A stretch of DNA of 64,000 nucleotides, taken from assembly GCA_964469505.1 (NCBI GenBank), contig CAYXZO010000001.1, positions 37,402 through 101,401 of the forward strand, given 5' to 3'. Each line of letters begins with the position of its first letter. The stretch's first letter is position 1. Both the position numbers and the translations under genes were made by a program. The stretch is from an uncultured Lentisphaeria bacterium (GTDB taxonomy: Bacteria; Fidelibacterota; UBA8477; JABMPR01). Under the pieces are notes generated by a model, which did no database searches, was not told the origin of the DNA, and saw only the letters and a list, made by a program, of their open reading frames with translations. Positions 5,906 to 64,000 of this stretch are shown here, piece by piece.

Positions 5906-8900
5906 CTACTTTAATTCCACGTCCAGCCCCAGGCCTTTCATTTCCCGGAGCAAAACATTGAATGATTCAGGTGTCCCGAAGTCGGGCATGTTATGGCCCT
6001 TCACTATGGCGTTATACACCTTGGAACGGCCTTCCACATCGTCCGACTTCACGGTGAGCATTTCCTGGAGAGTGTAGGCGGCGCCGTAGGCTTCTAGCGC
6101 CCATACTTCCATCTCACCGAAACGCTGCCCACCGAACTGAGCCTTACCACCCAACGGCTGCTGGGTGATGAGGGAATAAGGACCGGTGGAACGAGCGTGC
6201 ATTTTGTCATCCACCTGATGCACCAGTTTCATCATGTAGATCTCACCGTAAGCCACGGGACTCTGGATGAACTCACCGGTGCGGCCGTCGATCAGCTGAG
6301 CTTTGCCGGTTTCAGGCACTCCGGCCTTCTTCATCCATTCCAGAATCTCTTCATGAGTAGCCCCGTTGAACACCGGGGTTTCGAATTTCACGTTGAGAAG
6401 TTTACCTACCCATCCCAGCATAGTTTCATACAACTGCCCCAGGTTCATTCGGGAAGGTACCCCCAAGGGATTCAGGACGATATCCACCGGTTTGCCATCG
6501 GGAGTGAAGGGCATATCCTCTTCAGGCACGATGGCCGCCACTACACCTTTGTTACCGTGGCGTCCAGCCATTTTGTCACCTACCCGAATCCGACGCTTGG
6601 TGGCGATTTGAACCTTAGCCAGCTTGATCACGCCGGGTTGCAGATCATCACCGACCTTGATCTTGTAAACTTCATTTTCGTAACGCTGATCAATTTTCAG
6701 ACGCAGACGCTGATAATTATCCAGCAGTTTTACTACCTTGCCGTTGATTTCGTCATCTTCGCAGATGGGATGCTCCAGATCGACCCGGTCCCAATTAACG
6801 TGGGCAATATGCTCCTTGGTGAGCACAGTACCTTTCTCGATCTGAACCCGGCCGCCAGTATCCTGAATGCCGGCGCTGATCTGCCCTTGGAGCAGGGAAT
6901 TGAGCTTCTCATTGCGTCGTTTGGTCAGTGAAGCTTTTTCCTGCTGGACTTTTTGTTTCAGTTGTTCCAGCAGCTTCTTCTCTTCATCCCGGGATTGACG
7001 ACCTTTTCGAGTGTAGAGCTCGGTTTTGATAACCACTCCGCTCATACCCGGTTCAGCCCGTTTGGAAGCATCCTTAACATCCCCGGCTTTTTCTCCGAAG
7101 ATAGCTTTGAGCAGCTTCTCTTCCGGTGTGGGATCGGTTTCACCTTTAGGTGTTACCTTACCGATAAGAATATCATTGGGCTTGACTTCCGCACCGATAC
7201 GGATGATGCCATCTTCCGTGAGGTTTCGGGTGGCTTCCTCTGAGACGTTTGGGATATCCCGGGTCAGTTCCTCTTCACCCCGCTTGGTCTCACGTACTTC
7301 CAGCTCCACTTGTTTAATGTGAATGCTGGTGAAGACGTCATCTTTCAGGATACGTTCGGAAAGAACAATGGCGTCCTCGAAATTGAGACCCCGCCAGGGC
7401 ATGAAGGCCACCGTTACGTTGCGTCCCAAGGCCAGCTCACCCTGGGCCGTGCTCATCCCGTCAGCCAGTATGTCACCCGGATTGACTTTCTGACCCGCTT
7501 TAACTACCGGACGCTGATTAATGCAAGTGTCCTGGTTGCTGCGGACGAATTTTTTCAGCTTATAACGAACGATTCCGGGTTCTTCTTCCAGGGAAGTGGC
7601 TTCGTCGATGCGCTGACTCACCTTGATAACGATCTCGTCGGCGCTTACGCTCTTAACTACGCCCTTGACATCGGAAATCACTAACGCCTTTGAATCCCGA
7701 GCCACAATCCGCTCGAAACCGGTGCCAACTATAGGCGGCTCGGGCCACAATAACGGAACAGCCTGCCGCTGCATGTTGGAGCCCATTAGGGCCCGGTTGG
7801 CGTCGTCGTTTTCCAAGAAGGGGATGCAGGCTGCTGCCGCCGAAACGATTTGCAGAGGCGAAACGTCCATGTAATCCACTTCGGTAGCGGGAACCATGGG
7901 GAAGTCACCTCTGATACGTACCTGTATGCGGTCATCCGTGAAATGCCCATCTTCCGACAGGGGTGTATTAGCCTGGGCAATTTTCAGGCGATCTTCGTCA
8001 TCGGCGGAAAGGTATTGGATTTTCTTGGTAACCCGTGCTTTACCGTTGCTCACCACCACTTTACGGTAGGGAGTTTCGATAAAGCCCAGCCGGTTGATTT
8101 TGGCGTAAGTGGAAAGGGAAGAAATCAAACCGATGTTGGGACCTTCCGGTGTCTCGATGGGACACAGACGTCCATAGTGCGTGTAGTGCACGTCACGCAC
8201 TTCGAAACCGGCCCGCTCACGGGTCAGGGCCCCCGGCCCCAGGGATGAAAGACGACGTTTATGGGTTATTTCCGCCAAGGGATTGGTTTGATCCAAGAAC
8301 TGGGAAAGCTGATTGGTACCAAAAAAGGAGTTGATGGCAGCGGTAATAATGCGCGAGTTGACTAGATCTACCGGCTTCAGCTTCTCAGTGTCACGACTAT
8401 TCATTCTTTCGCGGATAGTGCGGGACATCCGGGCCAGAGCCACGGAGAATTGGTTCCCCAATTGCTCACCCACTGTCCGCACCCGCCGATTACCCAGGTG
8501 ATCAATATCATCGGTTCCCCGGGTCCCTTTACGCATCTCGATGAGATACTCGGTGGTACGGATCAAATCTTCCGGTTGCAGGGTGAGCTGATCCAGCGGA
8601 ACGTTTACGCCGAACTTTTTGTTCATGCGGTAACGCCCCACCTCTCCCAGATCGTATTTCTTGGGATCGAAGAAGAGGCGGGCCAGGAATTTCTCAGCCA
8701 GATCCAGGTTCGGCGGTTCGCCGCCCCGCATTTCCGAATAGAACAGCCGCAACGCTTCGTTGGTGCTGGTAGTGGGATCTTTGGCCAGGGTGTTGCTGAG
8801 AAGCTCGTACTTCAGATCCTGTGGATCGGTGACTACCTGAACACCCGTAATCCCAGCCTTCTTGAGTTCGCGCACCTTTTCCCGGGTGAGCTTTTCACCG

Positions 8901-9679
8901 GCTTCCAATAGAACTTCGCCGGTTTCCTTATTCACCACATCCACTGGGACTTCAGTGTCGTAATACTTCTTCAGCCCCACATTGTCAGCCAGGCGCAGTT
9001 CTTTCAGGATTCCAAAAGCATTCAGAATATCTTCGTTGGAAGAGTATCCGATGGCTCGGAGTAACACGGTCAAGGGGAACTTGCGCCGACGGTCGATGAT
9101 GGCATAAATGGCATCGTGGATGTCGGTGGTAAGATCCAACCAGCTACCCCGGAAAGGTATAATCCGCGCCGAGTACAGCTTGGTTCCGTTGGGGTGGGTC
9201 TTCTGTTCGAAGAAAACTCCAGGAGAACGCTGGAGCTGTGAAACCACCACCCTTTCGGCTCCGTTGATGATGAAGGAGCCTTTGGGGGTCATATATGGAA
9301 TATTACCAAAGAATATATCTTCCTCGATATGGTCCACCCATTTACCGGGTTGACCTTCCTCGGAAACATGCAGAATCAGCTTAACCTTCAGGGGCACAGA
9401 GTAGGTCACGCCCCGTTCCAGGCATTCTTCGATGGAATAGCGCGGTATCCCCAGAGAGTAGGAAACATACTCCAAAAGGTAGTTACCGTGGCTGTCCTCA
9501 ACGGGAAATACGGACTGGAAAATAGCTTCCAGACCTTTATTTTCCCGCAGCCGGGGGGGTACGTCTTCTTGTAAAAACTCCCGCCAAGAATCCAACTGGA
9601 CATGGAGCAGCGGGGGCAGCTCCAGTCCCGGATCTACTTTAGCGAAAGAGTAGCGTTTTACTAGAGATGTGGGAGACAA
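5906..9679 (-). CDS. rpoB: DNA-directed RNA polymerase beta subunit (start codon TTG at 9677-9679)
   Basis: 1257-aa ORF with conserved rpoB blocks (…GPGALTRERAGFEVRDVHYTHYGRLCPIETPEGPNIGLI…, …GEMEVWALEAYGAAYTLQEML…). GGAGGTG lies 7 nt upstream of the TTG. Confidence 0.96.
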   Translation of the reverse strand: MSPTSLVKRYSFAKVDPGLELPPLLHVQLDSWREFLQEDVPPRLRENKGLEAIFQSVFPVEDSHGNYLLEYVSYSLGIPRYSIEECLERGVTYSVPLKVKLILHVSEEGQPGKWVDHIEEDIFFGNIPYMTPKGSFIINGAERVVVSQLQRSPGVFFEQKTHPNGTKLYSARIIPFRGSWLDLTTDIHDAIYAIIDRRRKFPLTVLLRAIGYSSNEDILNAFGILKELRLADNVGLKKYYDTEVPVDVVNKETGEVLLEAGEKLTREKVRELKKAGITGVQVVTDPQDLKYELLSNTLAKDPTTSTNEALRLFYSEMRGGEPPNLDLAEKFLARLFFDPKKYDLGEVGRYRMNKKFGVNVPLDQLTLQPEDLIRTTEYLIEMRKGTRGTDDIDHLGNRRVRTVGEQLGNQFSVALARMSRTIRERMNSRDTEKLKPVDLVNSRIITAAINSFFGTNQLSQFLDQTNPLAEITHKRRLSSLGPGALTRERAGFEVRDVHYTHYGRLCPIETPEGPNIGLISSLSTYAKINRLGFIETPYRKVVVSNGKARVTKKIQYLSADDEDRLKIAQANTPLSEDGHFTDDRIQVRIRGDFPMVPATEVDYMDVSPLQIVSAAAACIPFLENDDANRALMGSNMQRQAVPLLWPEPPIVGTGFERIVARDSKALVISDVKGVVKSVSADEIVIKVSQRIDEATSLEEEPGIVRYKLKKFVRSNQDTCINQRPVVKAGQKVNPGDILADGMSTAQGELALGRNVTVAFMPWRGLNFEDAIVLSERILKDDVFTSIHIKQVELEVRETKRGEEELTRDIPNVSEEATRNLTEDGIIRIGAEVKPNDILIGKVTPKGETDPTPEEKLLKAIFGEKAGDVKDASKRAEPGMSGVVIKTELYTRKGRQSRDEEKKLLEQLKQKVQQEKASLTKRRNEKLNSLLQGQISAGIQDTGGRVQIEKGTVLTKEHIAHVNWDRVDLEHPICEDDEINGKVVKLLDNYQRLRLKIDQRYENEVYKIKVGDDLQPGVIKLAKVQIATKRRIRVGDKMAGRHGNKGVVAAIVPEEDMPFTPDGKPVDIVLNPLGVPSRMNLGQLYETMLGWVGKLLNVKFETPVFNGATHEEILEWMKKAGVPETGKAQLIDGRTGEFIQSPVAYGEIYMMKLVHQVDDKMHARSTGPYSLITQQPLGGKAQFGGQRFGEMEVWALEAYGAAYTLQEMLTVKSDDVEGRSKVYNAIVKGHNMPDFGTPESFNVLLREMKGLGLDVELK

Positions 9680-57620: not shown

Positions 57621-57627
57621 AAAGTAG

Positions 57628-57666
57628 TGTTAAACGGTGTTTAAACGACGTTTAATGGTCGTTGAA
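57628..57666. promoter_or_regulatory. Near-palindromic AT-rich motif (gtgttaaacggtgtttaaacgacgtttaatggtcgtt) directly upstream of the tetR ORF. Candidate TetR operator.
   Basis: Contains GTTTAAAC and an AACGAC…GTCGTT inverted repeat. Positional inference only. Confidence 0.25.
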
Positions 57667-57750
57667 TGCCTGATTTACTGAATAACCGGTGCCCGTGGCG
57701 GGGTGCCTACCCCGGCGATGTTCCTCAATACGCGGGTGGGCAGTCCGATG

Positions 57751-57905
57751 TGTCATTGCGAGTGAGTCCCGATCCCGCCCTGGCGGGAGGATGAACGAAG
57801 CAATCCGTCAGATATTTCCATTACACTCTTCCTGCCGCCGGTCCTTTCCGACGAACCGGTACGGATTGCTTCGTCTCCCGATAAATCGGGATCCTCGCAA
57901 TGACA
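57751..57905. repeat. Approximately 155-bp nested inverted-repeat element: outer arms tgtcattgcgag…gatcccg / cgggatcctcgcaatgaca, and inner 13-bp perfect IR cgaagcaatccgt / acggattgcttcg. MITE-like or structured RNA.
   Basis: Arms at 57751-57777 vs 57886-57905 and 57796-57808 vs 57861-57873, read from the sequence. There is also a cccgcc..ggcggg mini-palindrome at 57774-57787. Confidence 0.4.
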
Positions 57906-58223
57906 GGCCGGGAGCCTGGACGGAGTTTGCGGAGGGGTATGGGTTTATTTCGGGTTGTTATTGCCCTCTGCCCTCCGGCGGAGACGGGGCTCGGTTCTTG
58001 GGGCATCATACTGAAGTATGGTGTTGTTTACATTACGGTTCTTTTCCGGGCACAGCCTTACCAACCCTCCCCCAGGCTTACAATCCTGCCCTCCAACCAT
58101 TAATATCTCAATAACCCTCGGATACATAGCTACTTAGCTACATAGATACCCCCACACCCCCTTGCTCCCTCCTCCCTCATCCTTTCCATTGCCTTTTTCG
58201 TGGATTACCGGTAGGCTTAAGGG

Positions 58224-60633: not shown

Positions 60634-60921
60634 TTAAACAAAAACGGCTGTATACGCGATCGATAATCAGTTTATTGTTTTCTTATTCAAGAAAATTTCA
60701 CTGAAGTCGGGGGTTAACAAGGTTGCCCGTTCTAGGGGGGTCATTATGGAGTCGAGGAATTAAGGAGGGAGTTCCGCCCGTGGTGATCGCCGGTTTTTTC
60801 CCAGCCCGTTTTTCGCCCGAGCGCGGAACCCGATATATGGCTGAAGCCGACCGGCGGGGAGTGCGAGGGTTCGATGAAACAATAGGGGCTAAAGCTCCAT
60901 CATCGTTAGGCTTCCTTAGTC

Positions 60922-61002
60922 CACGGGCTGAAGCCCGTGACTAATCAAGATACTCACTAAATCATTCAATATTAATGACTTGCCCCGAGCTTCAGCTCGG
61001 GG
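60922..61002. repeat. Pair of mirror-oriented GC hairpins (cacgggcTGAAgcccgtg and ccccgagcTTCAgctcgggg) separated by about 43 bp of AT-rich DNA
   Basis: Read from the sequence. The loops are reverse complements of each other. This could be REP/BIME-like, a terminator pair, or the ends of a tiny element. Confidence 0.3.
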
Positions 61003-61205
61003 GTTGGGGTATTTCCCAAAAACTTTGGGAACCGGCTACTTATAAAACAACTTGAAACTATCATTGACTGATCCAAAGGTTTGGTTTGCAGAATCAAGCC
61101 TGACAGAAATAAATTCCGGCGAGAAAGTAGTATAACATGCAAATAGATTCCCTTCGAGTAGGATGGCTTCCACGGAATGTTTGTGTAACACTAAAGGGGT
61201 TTTAG

Positions 61206-64000
61206 ATGGCAGGTTACTCTTGCCTTTTAAGGCTTAAAATTGTCCGACAACACGGGAAACTTTTTTTATCACTGGGATCTCTTTTACTGTTGTCGTTCAC
61301 GCTGGCGGGTTGTTTCAGCGCTCTATCCATTATAGGAAGCCGCCGTTCTGCTGATTTACTAAGATGGAAATTTGAAACCAATAATGCTATCCGATGCGCT
61401 CCGGTTCTGGCGGATGACGGCACCATTTACGTGGGGTCTGGTGACCACTACCTTTACGCTCTCAACTCTGACGGCTCCCTTAAATGGAAATTTGAAACCG
61501 GCGAAAGGGTTGATTCTTCCCCGGCCGTTGCTGCTGATGGTACCATCTACGTGGGGTCGTGGGACAATTACCTTTACGCTCTCAACCCTGACGGCTCACT
61601 CAAATGGAAATTTAAAACCGGAGGTTGGGTCAGATCTTCCCCGGCCATCGGCGCCGGCGGTATCATTTACATGGGGTCATGGGACCATTTCCTCTATGCC
61701 GTTAAACCTGACGGTTCCCTTGCATGGAAATTCAAAACCGGCGACAAAGTCGATTCTTCTCCGGCCATCGGCGTCGACGGTACCATCTACGTGGGTTCAT
61801 GGGATCACTGTCTTTACGCTCTCAATCCTGACGGCTCGTTGAAGTGGAGATTTCAAACCGCAGACTTGGTTAAATCTTCCCCGGCCATCGGCGCTGACGG
61901 CACCATCTACGTGGGTTCCGACGATCACTACCTCTACGCCCTCAACCCCGACGGCTCGCTAAAGTGGAAATTTGAAACCGGTGACTGGGTTAGATCCTCT
62001 CCGGCCGTTACCGTCGACGGCACCATCTATGTGGGTTCCGATGATCGCTACCTTTACGCTCTCAATCCCGATGGCTCCCTAAAGTGGAAATTCGAAACCG
62101 GAGGTTGGGTTAGATCTTCCCCAGCTGTCGGCGCCGACAGCGTCGTTTATGTAGGCTCAGCTGACCACCATCTTTACGCCCTCAACCCCACCGGTACCCT
62201 CAAATGGAAATTTGAAACTGGAGCAAAGGTTGGTTCCTCCCCAGCCATCGCCGCCGATAGCGCTGTCTATGTGGGTTCAGATGACCACTATCTTTACGAT
62301 ATCAAATCCAGTAGCTCCCTCAGGTGGATATTTAAACCCATAGCCTGGGTTTACTCTTCTTCCTTCCCGAAAAATAGCAGGACCACCCATGTCGGATCGG
62401 ACAACAGAGATCTCTACGCCATAGCCGACCTCAACGGTAGTCTGGTCCGAAGCTCCTGGCCCAAATTCCACCGGGACCAATTCAACGGAGGTTTTATCGG
62501 AAAAACTACATACACATGCTTTACGACTGAAAAGGCAGCGCCTCTGCTTTCCTCAACGGGCAAAACCATAACTCGACTCCCTATTGCAACAAGCATAACA
62601 ATAGTAAAAGCAGGAAAAAATTACGCCTACGTTCAGGTGGGAGACAACCTGAAAGGCTGGATAAAAAACGGCACTTTCAGTCCGGAAAAGCCGGACATCG
62701 CTCGGCCGTTGATCAGGATAATCGAGAAAAACTTCCAGGAACCCTATCTGTACCTGAAAGGCGTGGCCTATGATGACAAGGCGATTGCCGCCGTGGCCTT
62801 CGCCGGCAAGAACTTGCCCCGGGCGGATTTCGAAGTGGAGCATACTAATTACGGCGACGTTTATCCTTTCGAAGCTCGTCTTTTAATTATGCCCGGCACT
62901 AAGAAGATTTTGCGGGCCCGGGACCACAGCGGTAAGGTAACCGAACTACCCCTGCGTATCGAAGGGCGCCCGGTCTCTTACATACCCGAGCTGACTCAAC
63001 TGGTAACAACCAAGGCCGCCAACCTGCGCTCCGGTCCCAGTCTGCAAGCCAAGGTGCTCAAAACCGTTCCTCCCGGCACCCAACTCCTGGCTCTGGGGCA
63101 TAAAAAGGGTTGGTACATTCTGGAGGGTGGCAGCTGGATTTACCGTAGCGTGGTCAAAAAAATCGAATTGCCGCAAACCTCAACTCCAGGAGCCATAACC
63201 ATTGCCGAGGCAGCGCAGGTTCCCACACCCCCGGATGTGCCGGCCCTCAGCGATGTGGATGTTAAAATTCCTTCAACCCACCAAAAAAGACCTTACGATG
63301 TAGCCCTCATCATCGCCAACGCGAAGTATCAGAGTCAAGATGTGCCTCCCGTGAAATATGCCCTGCGAGACGCTCACGCCATGCGGGATTACCTGGTGAA
63401 AACCCTGGGATTTAAAAAAGAAAACATTCTCTACGTGGAGAACGCCACCTTGGCCAAGATGCGGGAACTGTTGGGGAGCGAGAACAACCCCAAGGGGCGC
63501 CTGTATAATTTTCTGCGACCGGGACGCGGCACGGTTTTCGTGTATTATGTGGGACATGGGGCACCGGATTTGGTGAACAAAGAAGCCTACTTCGTGCCCG
63601 TGGATTGCGCTCCAAATTTCGTCGCCCAAAACGGCTATCCTTTATCGTTGTTCTATGACAACCTCAACCGACTACCGGCCCGGCAAATAACGGTGGTGAT
63701 CGATGCGTGTTTTTCCGGGGGTTATTCGGAGGGCATGCTGATTCGTCAGGCCAGCCCCATATACCTGAGCGTGGAGCAACCTCAAGTTCCGAAGAAAGCT
63801 TTGCTATTTACGGCTGCCAACGGTGACCAGATCGCTTCATGGTATCCGGAGAAAAATCATTCATTGTTCACCTACTTTTTCTTAAAAGGTCTCCAGGGCG
63901 AAGCTGATCTGGACGGAAATGGTAGTATCTTAGCTGGTGAGATGGCGCAATACCTAAAAGACAATGTGCCGTATTTAGCCGGTCGCTTATTCAATCGGGA
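61206..64000 (+). CDS. Lipoprotein with an approximately 9-blade PQQ/BamB-like beta-propeller, two SH3b-like domains and a C-terminal caspase-like (peptidase C14) domain. The 3' end lies beyond the window.
   Basis: Hand translation of the +3-phase frame from ATG 61206 runs to the window end with no stop. It reads MAGYSCLLRLKIVRQHGKLFLSLGSLLLLSFTLAGC (lipobox), then 9× [DGSLKWKFETGxxVxSSPAxxxDGTIYVGSxDxxLYALNP], then …KAANLRSGPSLQAKVLKTVPPGTQLLALGHKKGWYIL…, then …YDVALIIANAKYQ…VFVYYVGHGAP…VVIDACFSGG… (caspase His and Cys). It is not in the ORF track because no stop lies inside the window. Confidence 0.8.
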   Translation, partial: MAGYSCLLRLKIVRQHGKLFLSLGSLLLLSFTLAGCFSALSIIGSRRSADLLRWKFETNNAIRCAPVLADDGTIYVGSGDHYLYALNSDGSLKWKFETGERVDSSPAVAADGTIYVGSWDNYLYALNPDGSLKWKFKTGGWVRSSPAIGAGGIIYMGSWDHFLYAVKPDGSLAWKFKTGDKVDSSPAIGVDGTIYVGSWDHCLYALNPDGSLKWRFQTADLVKSSPAIGADGTIYVGSDDHYLYALNPDGSLKWKFETGDWVRSSPAVTVDGTIYVGSDDRYLYALNPDGSLKWKFETGGWVRSSPAVGADSVVYVGSADHHLYALNPTGTLKWKFETGAKVGSSPAIAADSAVYVGSDDHYLYDIKSSSSLRWIFKPIAWVYSSSFPKNSRTTHVGSDNRDLYAIADLNGSLVRSSWPKFHRDQFNGGFIGKTTYTCFTTEKAAPLLSSTGKTITRLPIATSITIVKAGKNYAYVQVGDNLKGWIKNGTFSPEKPDIARPLIRIIEKNFQEPYLYLKGVAYDDKAIAAVAFAGKNLPRADFEVEHTNYGDVYPFEARLLIMPGTKKILRARDHSGKVTELPLRIEGRPVSYIPELTQLVTTKAANLRSGPSLQAKVLKTVPPGTQLLALGHKKGWYILEGGSWIYRSVVKKIELPQTSTPGAITIAEAAQVPTPPDVPALSDVDVKIPSTHQKRPYDVALIIANAKYQSQDVPPVKYALRDAHAMRDYLVKTLGFKKENILYVENATLAKMRELLGSENNPKGRLYNFLRPGRGTVFVYYVGHGAPDLVNKEAYFVPVDCAPNFVAQNGYPLSLFYDNLNRLPARQITVVIDACFSGGYSEGMLIRQASPIYLSVEQPQVPKKALLFTAANGDQIASWYPEKNHSLFTYFFLKGLQGEADLDGNGSILAGEMAQYLKDNVPYLAGRLFNR
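61355..62440 (+). repeat. Tandem 120-bp DNA repeat (8 well-conserved copies plus 1-2 degenerate) encoding the propeller blades
   Basis: The motif …c(t/a)aa(a/g)tggaaatttgaaaccg… recurs at 61361, 61481, 61601, 61721, 61841, 61961, 62081, 62201 and 62321 with exact 120-bp spacing and high nucleotide identity. Confidence 0.85.

Follow-up and report, generated by a model that had tools for sequence, protein, structure and literature searches.

A diverged tandem array of blade-coding units in the gene of a putative extracytoplasmic SH3-caspase protein

Introduction

Highly repetitive beta-propellers form a known class. Membership requires consecutive blades to have a median identity of more than 60%, and the PQQ family is among the lineages listed for it, with 1.7% of the set (Pereira and Lupas 2022, PMC9218822). 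BamB is absent from the list of repetitive propellers in that survey (PMC9218822). Members of the same blade family have also been designed from the consensus of a natural template, 3hxj, yielding Cake8/Cake9, Scone and Bagel (Mylemans et al.; bioRxiv 10.1101/2021.04.12.439409). Scone has nine repeats and an eight-bladed fold, with one repeat left unfolded; for this Cake/Scone-type family, a bias of structure predictors, AlphaFold included, towards eight blades has been reported (bioRxiv 10.1101/2021.04.12.439409). Among natural proteins, the classical examples BamB (YfgL) and YxaL carry a lipoprotein signal and fold into PQQ-like propellers of eight blades. The "PQQ-like" repeats of BamB type are not known to bind PQQ. 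Repetitive WD40 propellers occur on cyanobacterial STAND, TIR and caspase proteins; as summarized in the survey, these are cytoplasmic, with NTPase domains and near-identical blades (Dunin-Horkawicz et al. 2014, cited in PMC9218822).

Here, we describe an array of 120-bp units in a 64-kb window (the whole stretch of DNA analysed, 64,000 nucleotides). The array is an ordinary member of the repetitive class, and the phenomenon it represents is already known (Pereira and Lupas 2022, PMC9218822). As in other highly repetitive propellers derived from single blades, its blade units are in tandem and in frame, and they have been amplified past the number preferred by the fold, with the extra one decaying (PMC9218822; Afanasieva et al. 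2019, PMC6805158). Median blade identity is 68% for units 1-8, above the 60% threshold, and about 60%, borderline, when unit 9 is included. The array nevertheless lies at the diverged end of the class, with units sharing 70% of nucleotides and a dS of about 1.2.

Comparison with individual relatives shows both likeness and difference. Sequence identity to the Cake, Scone and Bagel designs is 56-70%, and the eight blades and unfolded repeat of Scone parallel units 1-8 and unit 9; those proteins are artificial, perfectly or three-fold symmetric and stand-alone, whereas the one described here occurs in nature, has no such symmetry and forms a fusion with SH3 and caspase parts. BamB and YxaL share its fold and type of signal (Foldseek E-values of 1e-17 to 1e-24), but sequence identity to them is only 21-34%, and BamB lacks the SH3 and caspase parts. 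The BamB profile TIGR03300 matches partially, at 108.6 bits, far below its equivalog cut-off of 285.2, and PRK11138 reaches 86.5 bits against a cut-off of 423. With the cyanobacterial WD40 proteins it shares a propeller joined to an apoptosis-type effector (caspase); as those proteins are summarized in the survey, it differs from them in its secretion/lipoprotein signal, lack of an NTPase, PQQ-like propeller and old repeats.

Results and Discussion

Nine in-frame units of exactly 120 bp make up the array. They occupy 1,080 bp (61353-62432, + strand) without indels, and each unit of 40 codons encodes one PQQ-like propeller blade. The original prediction of tandem one-blade units at this place is borne out by Tandem Repeats Finder (TRF; 61416-62305, period 120, 7.4 copies, 76% matches, score 700), by a repeat search in which every copy starts exactly 120 bp after the last, and by the reading frame. 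No other array of this kind with period 120 is present in the window. TRF also reported a 240-bp period, which we rejected, as identity at lag 2 (0.743) is not above that at lag 1 (0.751). The features of the gene are as follows.

61206..64000, + strand: first 931 codons of a 949-codon gene (ATG start at 61206; extends past the window end)
61206..61313, + strand: signal peptide with lipobox L-A-G-C (Cys36), read from the translation
61353..61472, + strand: unit 1 (blade 1), N-terminal, somewhat diverged (59-69% nucleotide identity to units 2-8; blade HMM 55.8 bits; pLDDT above 95)
61473..62312, + strand: units 2-8 (blades 2-8), well conserved (pairwise 63-81% nucleotide and 57-82% amino acid identity)
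62313..62432, + strand: unit 9, degenerate, predicted surplus copy (46-57% nucleotide and 28-42% amino acid identity; blade HMM 14 bits)
62433..62492, + strand: C-terminal propeller cap (NGSLVRSSWPKFHRDQFNGG); homologues carry the homologous motif "(S)PWPKFRH" after their eighth unit
63015..63122, + strand: bacterial SH3 domain, amino acids 604-639 (Pfam PF08239, 33.7 bits)
63300..63908, + strand: Peptidase C14 (caspase) domain, amino acids 699-901 (Pfam PF00656, 52.1 bits; NCBIfam NF047832)

Units 1-8 are predicted to close an eight-bladed propeller. A mixture of well-conserved and degenerate units had been anticipated and is what we find: conservation is high in units 2-8 (blade HMM matches of 82-93 bits, pLDDT above 95), somewhat lower in unit 1, and unit 9 is degenerate. 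Unit 9 is still a true repeat, with 51% nucleotide identity to the other units against 26 +/- 3% (maximum 35%) for in-frame 120-nt segments taken from the remainder of the gene. AlphaFold was run both with an alignment and without one; pLDDT lies above 80-95 at amino acids 50-369 and falls below 50 in unit 9. In Foldseek, the model matches the designed Cake8 (TM 0.99, RMSD 0.5 Å) as well as 3hxj, YxaL and BamB, and 188 of 252 homologous arrays have eight units. These models suggest a closed propeller of eight four-stranded blades, although the predictors may favour eight. Unit 9 is then predicted to be a decayed copy surplus to the fold, with a nine-bladed fold as a possible alternative. This is a natural case of nine amplified units with eight apparently used, paralleling the designed Scone proteins.

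The propeller is the N-terminal part of a caspase-like protein. In the 949-aa product, a lipoprotein-type signal is followed by the PQQ-like beta-propeller, the SH3b domain and the C14 caspase domain. PQQ-like propeller profiles score above the Pfam gathering cut-offs (PF13570, 249.6 bits against 133, E = 7e-74; PF13360, 129.3 against 27.6, E = 2e-37), and the caspase profile clears its own of 21.4 (PF00656, E = 9e-14); PF08239 has an E-value of 4e-8. The translation contains the caspase motifs YYVGHG and VIDACFSG, and motif inspection points to a putative His-Gly/Cys dyad. AlphaFold places a helix at amino acids 11-34, within the signal-peptide region, and the lipobox indicates that the protein is probably secreted, or at least extracytoplasmic. 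A sequence search of the PDB with the C-terminal module found no relative.

The units are not near-identical, as had been proposed. Among units 1-8, pairwise identity is only 59-81% at the DNA level (mean 70%) and 45-82% at the protein level, so the array lacks the nucleotide-level near-identity that marks a very recent event. Third codon positions are identical in 52% of comparisons on average; the claim that identity is high even at synonymous positions was thus overstated, while a small excess of shared codons (below) is statistically real. The median Nei-Gojobori dS is 1.24, a noisy estimate from 40 codons per pair, with 3 of the 28 pairs saturated, and dN is about 0.23. A neighbour-joining tree of the units is star-like, terminal branches making up 86% of its length. 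The array is an old single-blade amplification whose copies diverged long ago and are still diverging.

Nucleotide identity alone is a poor guide to the age of such arrays. Identities below about 50% had been proposed as the mark of ancient blades, and units 1-8, at 59-81%, exceed that level; however, the threshold is miscalibrated, because amino acid constraint alone gives unrelated blades of this family 61-67% nucleotide identity. In a matched comparison, values within the array are 0.72 for nucleotides, 0.53 for shared codons and 69% for amino acids, against 62-64%, 0.28-0.39 and 65-69% for blades of unrelated proteins from other organisms. Young related arrays elsewhere show 82-89% nucleotide identity, contain exact repeats 47-100 nt long and have same-codon fractions of 0.73-0.94. 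Since blade protein identity is the same within this protein as between unrelated ones, most of the similarity reflects selection on the family-wide blade consensus, and amino acid identity lends nothing to the proposal of recent amplification. For PQQ-like propellers, therefore, 60-70% nucleotide identity between blades is background from amino acid constraint, and amplification can be dated only by synonymous sites and by the lengths of exact tracts.

Synonymous sites retain a trace of common DNA ancestry. Identical residues in units 1-8 use the same codon in 55% of cases, against 35-37% expected from codon usage (0.55 against 0.35 in simulations based on the codon usage of the window, z = 9.5). 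Permuting the codons of the array itself between positions with the same residue gives a fraction of 0.44, and none of 5000 permutations reaches the observed value. Codon sharing is thus column-specific, beyond genome-wide or array-wide codon usage. For example, CTT encodes the Leu of column 34 in six of eight units, and CTC encodes that of column 37 in all six cases; the host uses each of these codons rarely (9-10%). At the DNA level, every unit finds its nearest match inside the array and not in a foreign blade. Together with the column-specific codons, this upholds the part of the original prediction in which the array was built by amplifying a 120-bp blade-coding unit, and the trace of common ancestry, as read from these codons, is real but weak. 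The third-position composition of the array is odd. A foreign origin was considered and rejected, as the codon-usage score ranks at the 19th percentile among other genes and is no outlier.

The same data bear on whether any amplification took place in this gene. The propeller could instead have come in one piece, by inheritance or acquisition, from an old ancestor with eight or nine blades, with its internal similarity due to consensus selection and codon bias. This would fit the equal amino acid identities within and between proteins, the units whose closest protein neighbour sits in another protein, and the 56-70% identity of the blades to the consensus-designed Cake8 and v31Bagel8. We consider it improbable: the excess of shared codons is column-specific, falls on host-rare codons and, like nucleotide identity, is higher within the array than between proteins, and no propeller from another lineage was found in which blade i matches blade i at synonymous sites.

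Exact tracts shared between units are short. The longest common to two units measures 21 nt, which does not exceed the length seen in codon-column shuffles, and no 25-mer is repeated within the array. On average, longest runs slightly exceed those in the shuffled sets (mean 13.6, shuffled 11.9; p about 0.03). Identity also falls mildly with distance between units, from about 0.75 at lags 1-2 to 0.66 at lag 5, and no two units are closer than 5 and 6 (81% nucleotide identity, dS 0.70). Slow and sporadic gene conversion between neighbours might leave such patterns, in which case divergence was slowed and the residual synonymous similarity stems from later exchanges rather than from the original amplification. 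This too seems unlikely, as no tract exceeds chance length, terminal branches dominate the tree, and adjacent conserved motifs (SSPA, YVGS) account for the excess in run length.

The array is uniform in sequence and copy number wherever it was recovered. Five further independent metagenome contigs show no differences over the 1080 bp of nine units. The protein cluster has three members, one sourced from NCBI, all full-length at 949 aa (P0001, with 3 amino acid differences from the window, P0241 and P0242), and protein searches returned no shorter or longer near-identical match. This is a test of low power, as contigs and cluster members all represent one near-clonal population. Even so, the agreement speaks against a hot spot for copy-number change and, with the absence of repeated 25-mers, against assembly collapse. 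Homologous recombination would have tracts of at most 21 nt as its substrate, and the units now seem to share too little exact sequence for efficient recombination or for confusion of an assembler. No match to the array's unique 5' and 3' anchors came from a metagenome contig collection, which evidently lacks the organism. Protein searches and a genome contig scan found no orthologue of the same architecture; the scan with the full protein gave distant propellers only (an archaeal MAG, 64%; Desulfatiglans, 41%; others), and the nearest RpoB relative is 76% identical.

Recent amplification, or ongoing homogenization by unequal recombination or gene conversion at a site prone to copy-number change and assembly collapse, is largely refuted and very improbable: the exact 120-bp phase without indels, synonymous codon sharing above chance and truly young related arrays elsewhere, which show that the process occurs in the family, are outweighed by the high dS, a nucleotide identity just 6-8 points over that of unrelated blades, the star-like tree, the chance-length tracts and the sameness of the array in the five other assemblies and all three cluster members.

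We regard an old one-unit amplification, followed by independent divergence into an eight-bladed propeller and a decayed ninth copy, as the probable origin. A single 120-bp blade-coding unit would have been multiplied head to tail into nine copies, in what was most likely a single burst, through replication slippage or unequal crossing-over. The copies would then have diverged independently, by more than one substitution per synonymous site, while purifying selection (dN/dS about 0.2) presumably held each blade near the consensus common to the whole propeller family. The resulting eight-bladed propeller may serve the protease as a ligand- or protein-binding module, and the ninth copy, surplus to the fold, would have been left to decay.

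Beyond correct annotation, the importance of the array is small. The sole aspect possibly worth more work is the exchange of repeat domains on a secreted SH3-caspase module that is itself conserved. The nearest relatives of the caspase module bear repetitive WD40 arrays. Tentatively, the secreted SH3-caspase might act as a modular platform on which the recognition domain, at the N-terminus, is repeatedly swapped for newly amplified repeats of unrelated superfamilies (PQQ-like here; WD40, DUF5122 and TPR in the closest relatives). It would then be an extracytoplasmic counterpart of propeller-bearing proteins of innate-immunity type, with the variable blade loop columns 11, 12, 14, 30, 32 and 33 setting target specificity.

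The flanking genes encode an alpha-amylase, a DUF3228 protein, an isochorismatase and QRPTase. Given these neighbours, and with a weak PADLOC caspase match (3e-7) as the sole indication, a role in a defence system was rejected. Rfam identifies five tRNAs only, all distant from the propeller-caspase gene.

Anatomy and predicted fold of the array

The array-bearing open reading frame begins with an ATG at 61206 and remains open through the end of the window. In this frame, the repeats resolve into nine 40-codon units.

61206 onward, + strand: gene for the 949-aa query protein; N-terminus with lipobox LAGC
61353-62432, + strand: array of nine 120-bp units (units 1-9)
aa 50-415: PQQ-like propeller, PF13570 and PF13360 (Pfam)
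aa 604-639: SH3_3 domain (Pfam)
aa 699-901: Peptidase_C14 (Pfam)

Tandem Repeats Finder detects a period-120 array at 61416-62305 (7.4 copies, 76% consensus matches, score 700), alternatively described with a 240-bp period; no other long-period array occurs in the 64-kb window. All copies start exactly 120 apart in an ungapped repeat search, and each of the nine units carries the motif GSLKWKFETGxxVxSSPAIxxDGTIYVGSxDxxLYALNPD. Unit 1 is moderately diverged; conservation is good across units 2-8. Unit 9 shares 51% nucleotide identity with the other units, against a null of 26 ± 3% (maximum 35%) from in-frame 120-nt segments of the rest of the gene; it is degenerate yet clearly homologous to them. 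Repeat searches and reading frame thus bear out the layout of the original prediction: eight good units plus one or two degenerate ones, in exact phase, with one blade per unit.

AlphaFold was run twice, once on a 14-sequence alignment and once on the query sequence alone. In both runs, aa 50-369 (units 1-8) are modeled with high confidence, and unit 9 with the WPKFHRD cap has pLDDT <50. Foldseek aligns the model with the eight-bladed designer protein Cake8 (TM 0.99, rmsd 0.5 Å); other matches are v31Bagel8 (70% identity), 3hxj, YxaL, and BamB. Eight units, with the cap directly after unit 8, are found in 188 of 252 homologous arrays, and in the query the cap is placed after unit 9. Nine units were thus made, of which eight appear to be used. 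The designed Scone proteins, which are built of nine repeats from this blade family, crystallized as eight-bladed propellers with one repeat unfolded; the same paper reports that structure predictors favor eight blades (bioRxiv 10.1101/2021.04.12.439409), and a nine-bladed fold of the query is therefore possible.

Identity to Cake8, Cake9, and v31Bagel8, consensus propellers designed by computation, is 56-70% for the natural query blades, which shows that this natural family lies near its own consensus.

Units are amplified but diverged

The units had been described as near-identical, a description that does not hold for units 1-8.

Divergence among units 1-8 (pairwise comparisons)
Nucleotide identity: 59-81%, mean 70%
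Amino-acid identity: 45-82%, mean 65%
Third-position identity: 52%
Identical residues with the same codon: 55% (codon usage predicts 35-37%)
Nei-Gojobori dS: median 1.24, range 0.70 to saturated, undefined in 3 of 28 pairs
Nei-Gojobori dN: mean 0.23

Synonymous divergence of this order is seen between Escherichia coli and Salmonella orthologues.

A homology search finds matches to the propeller in thousands of PQQ-like propeller proteins, with identities of 40-65%. Using a blade HMM, we excised comparison blades from the top matches. Query blades share 69% protein identity among themselves and 65-69% with blades of four unrelated proteins of differing architecture (P0038, P0016, P0095, and P0115); for several query units, the closest protein neighbor is a blade in another protein. 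Within-protein blade identity has a median of 61% among homologues, 26% of which exceed the query. A nucleotide scale was built on the DNA of four homologues.

Nucleotide-level calibration (nucleotide identity; same-codon fraction; longest exact direct repeat)
Unrelated blades vs. query blades: 62-64%; 0.28-0.39; not applicable
Within the query array, units 2-8: 72%; 0.53; 21 nt
Within four related arrays: 82-89%; 0.73-0.94; 47-100 nt

Unrelated blades of this family are kept above 60% nucleotide identity by amino-acid constraint alone. Because of this constraint, the bound of <50% originally proposed for ancient duplication is miscalibrated for this family, as unrelated blades already reach 62-64%.

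The observed same-codon fraction of 0.549 compares with 0.352 ± 0.021 in codons simulated from window usage (z = 9.5). When the array's own codons were exchanged among same-residue positions, the fraction was 0.436 ± 0.016 and 0 of 5000 permutations reached the observed value; codon sharing is therefore column-specific. Leu at column 34 of the unit is CTT and at column 37 CTC, each just 9-10% of Leu codons in host genes. Every unit finds its best DNA match in another array unit (0.74-0.81, vs. 0.65-0.72 for the best foreign blade). A DNA trace of amplification is thus present and significant, though weak. Column-specific codon sharing and within-array best matches uphold amplification, but the median dS of 1.24 argues against its being recent.

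Third positions in 61353-62312 are 43% C and 13% G (27% and 29% in 26 other window genes), as would fit descent of the codons from a single ancestral unit. The overall codon-usage score of this segment lies at the 19th percentile and is no outlier.

Homogenization and stability

We found no evidence of ongoing homogenization or instability in the unit tree, tract lengths, 25-mers, or five contigs of a near-clonal population. The neighbor-joining tree of the units has a star-like shape, and 86% of its total length lies in terminal branches. The longest identical tract is 21 nt; codon-column shuffles average 22.4, and 62% are equal or longer. Both results speak against the proposed concerted evolution. 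Minimal homology requirements leave RecA-type recombination almost no substrate in such an array. No 25-mer is repeated in 61300-62500, so assemblers with k >= 25 should resolve the array, and the suspected short-read collapse is not borne out.

Five samples each yielded an independent metagenome contig with the gene, and all five contigs show nine units and 0 differences across the 1,080-bp array; these represent one near-clonal population, and exact-protein look-ups return equal-length alleles only. The 90% cluster has three members, each of 949 aa, the homology search returned no near-identical protein of another length, and the contigs break in the spacer ahead of the gene, outside the array. 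Copy-number instability, also anticipated, thus finds no support within this near-clonal population.

In 2022, Pereira and Lupas surveyed beta-propellers with median blade identity >60%, attributed repetitive propellers to continuous amplification from single blades, named the PQQ family among these lineages, and pointed out assembly risks for near-identical arrays (PMC9218822). At a median of 68% for units 1-8, the query array falls within this class by protein identity, at the old, differentiating end of the continuum. The original prediction is thus partly supported: the feature is real and amplified, but not recent, concerted, or unstable.

A propeller on a conserved scaffold

Relatives of the C-terminal SH3-caspase module (62460-63998) align over 95-98% of its length with 37-47% identity. 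In the closest of these (proteins P0121-P0134), the N-terminal domains are WD40, TPR, DUF5122, or none recognized, mostly behind signal peptides or lipoboxes. Given these differing N-termini, the PQQ-like propeller is a lineage-specific module on a conserved scaffold; the databases searched hold no orthologue with the same architecture. Two WD40 versions (P0122 and P0125) also have highly repetitive arrays, in which identity at lag 42 is 62-69%. At the locus of the other propeller-caspase fusion, P0038 (contig L010, 1800-7914), at least three Peptidase_C14 genes cluster in one strand region.

Host and flanking sequence

For RpoB (5906-9679, - strand), the nearest database relative shares 76% identity and named Marinimicrobia/Fidelibacterota share 61-64%, which places the host near this group. 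The host lineage is poorly sampled, and a scan of GTDB species representatives did not contain its genome.

Within the caspase domain, the window and all five metagenome contigs disagree at 10 nt of a 37-nt stretch (63848-63884), with E882G and N884G as the result; elsewhere the 2.8-kb gene matches throughout, save one site in contig L001. The cluster of differences has the look of a brief recombination or conversion tract, or else of an assembly artefact.

A ~600-bp non-coding gap upstream of an alpha-amylase gene (57621-58223), with no Rfam match, contains a perfect 14-nt inverted repeat (57795-57808/57861-57874). Upstream of the array gene, a 572-bp non-coding spacer (60634-61205) contains two GC-rich hairpins at about 60920-60943 and 60983-61003, with no repeat elsewhere in the window and no Rfam match. 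Three contigs (L001, L004, and L005) end or diverge in this spacer. L001 opens with ~70 nt of a diverged copy of the first hairpin element; the element may therefore be dispersed or strain-variable.
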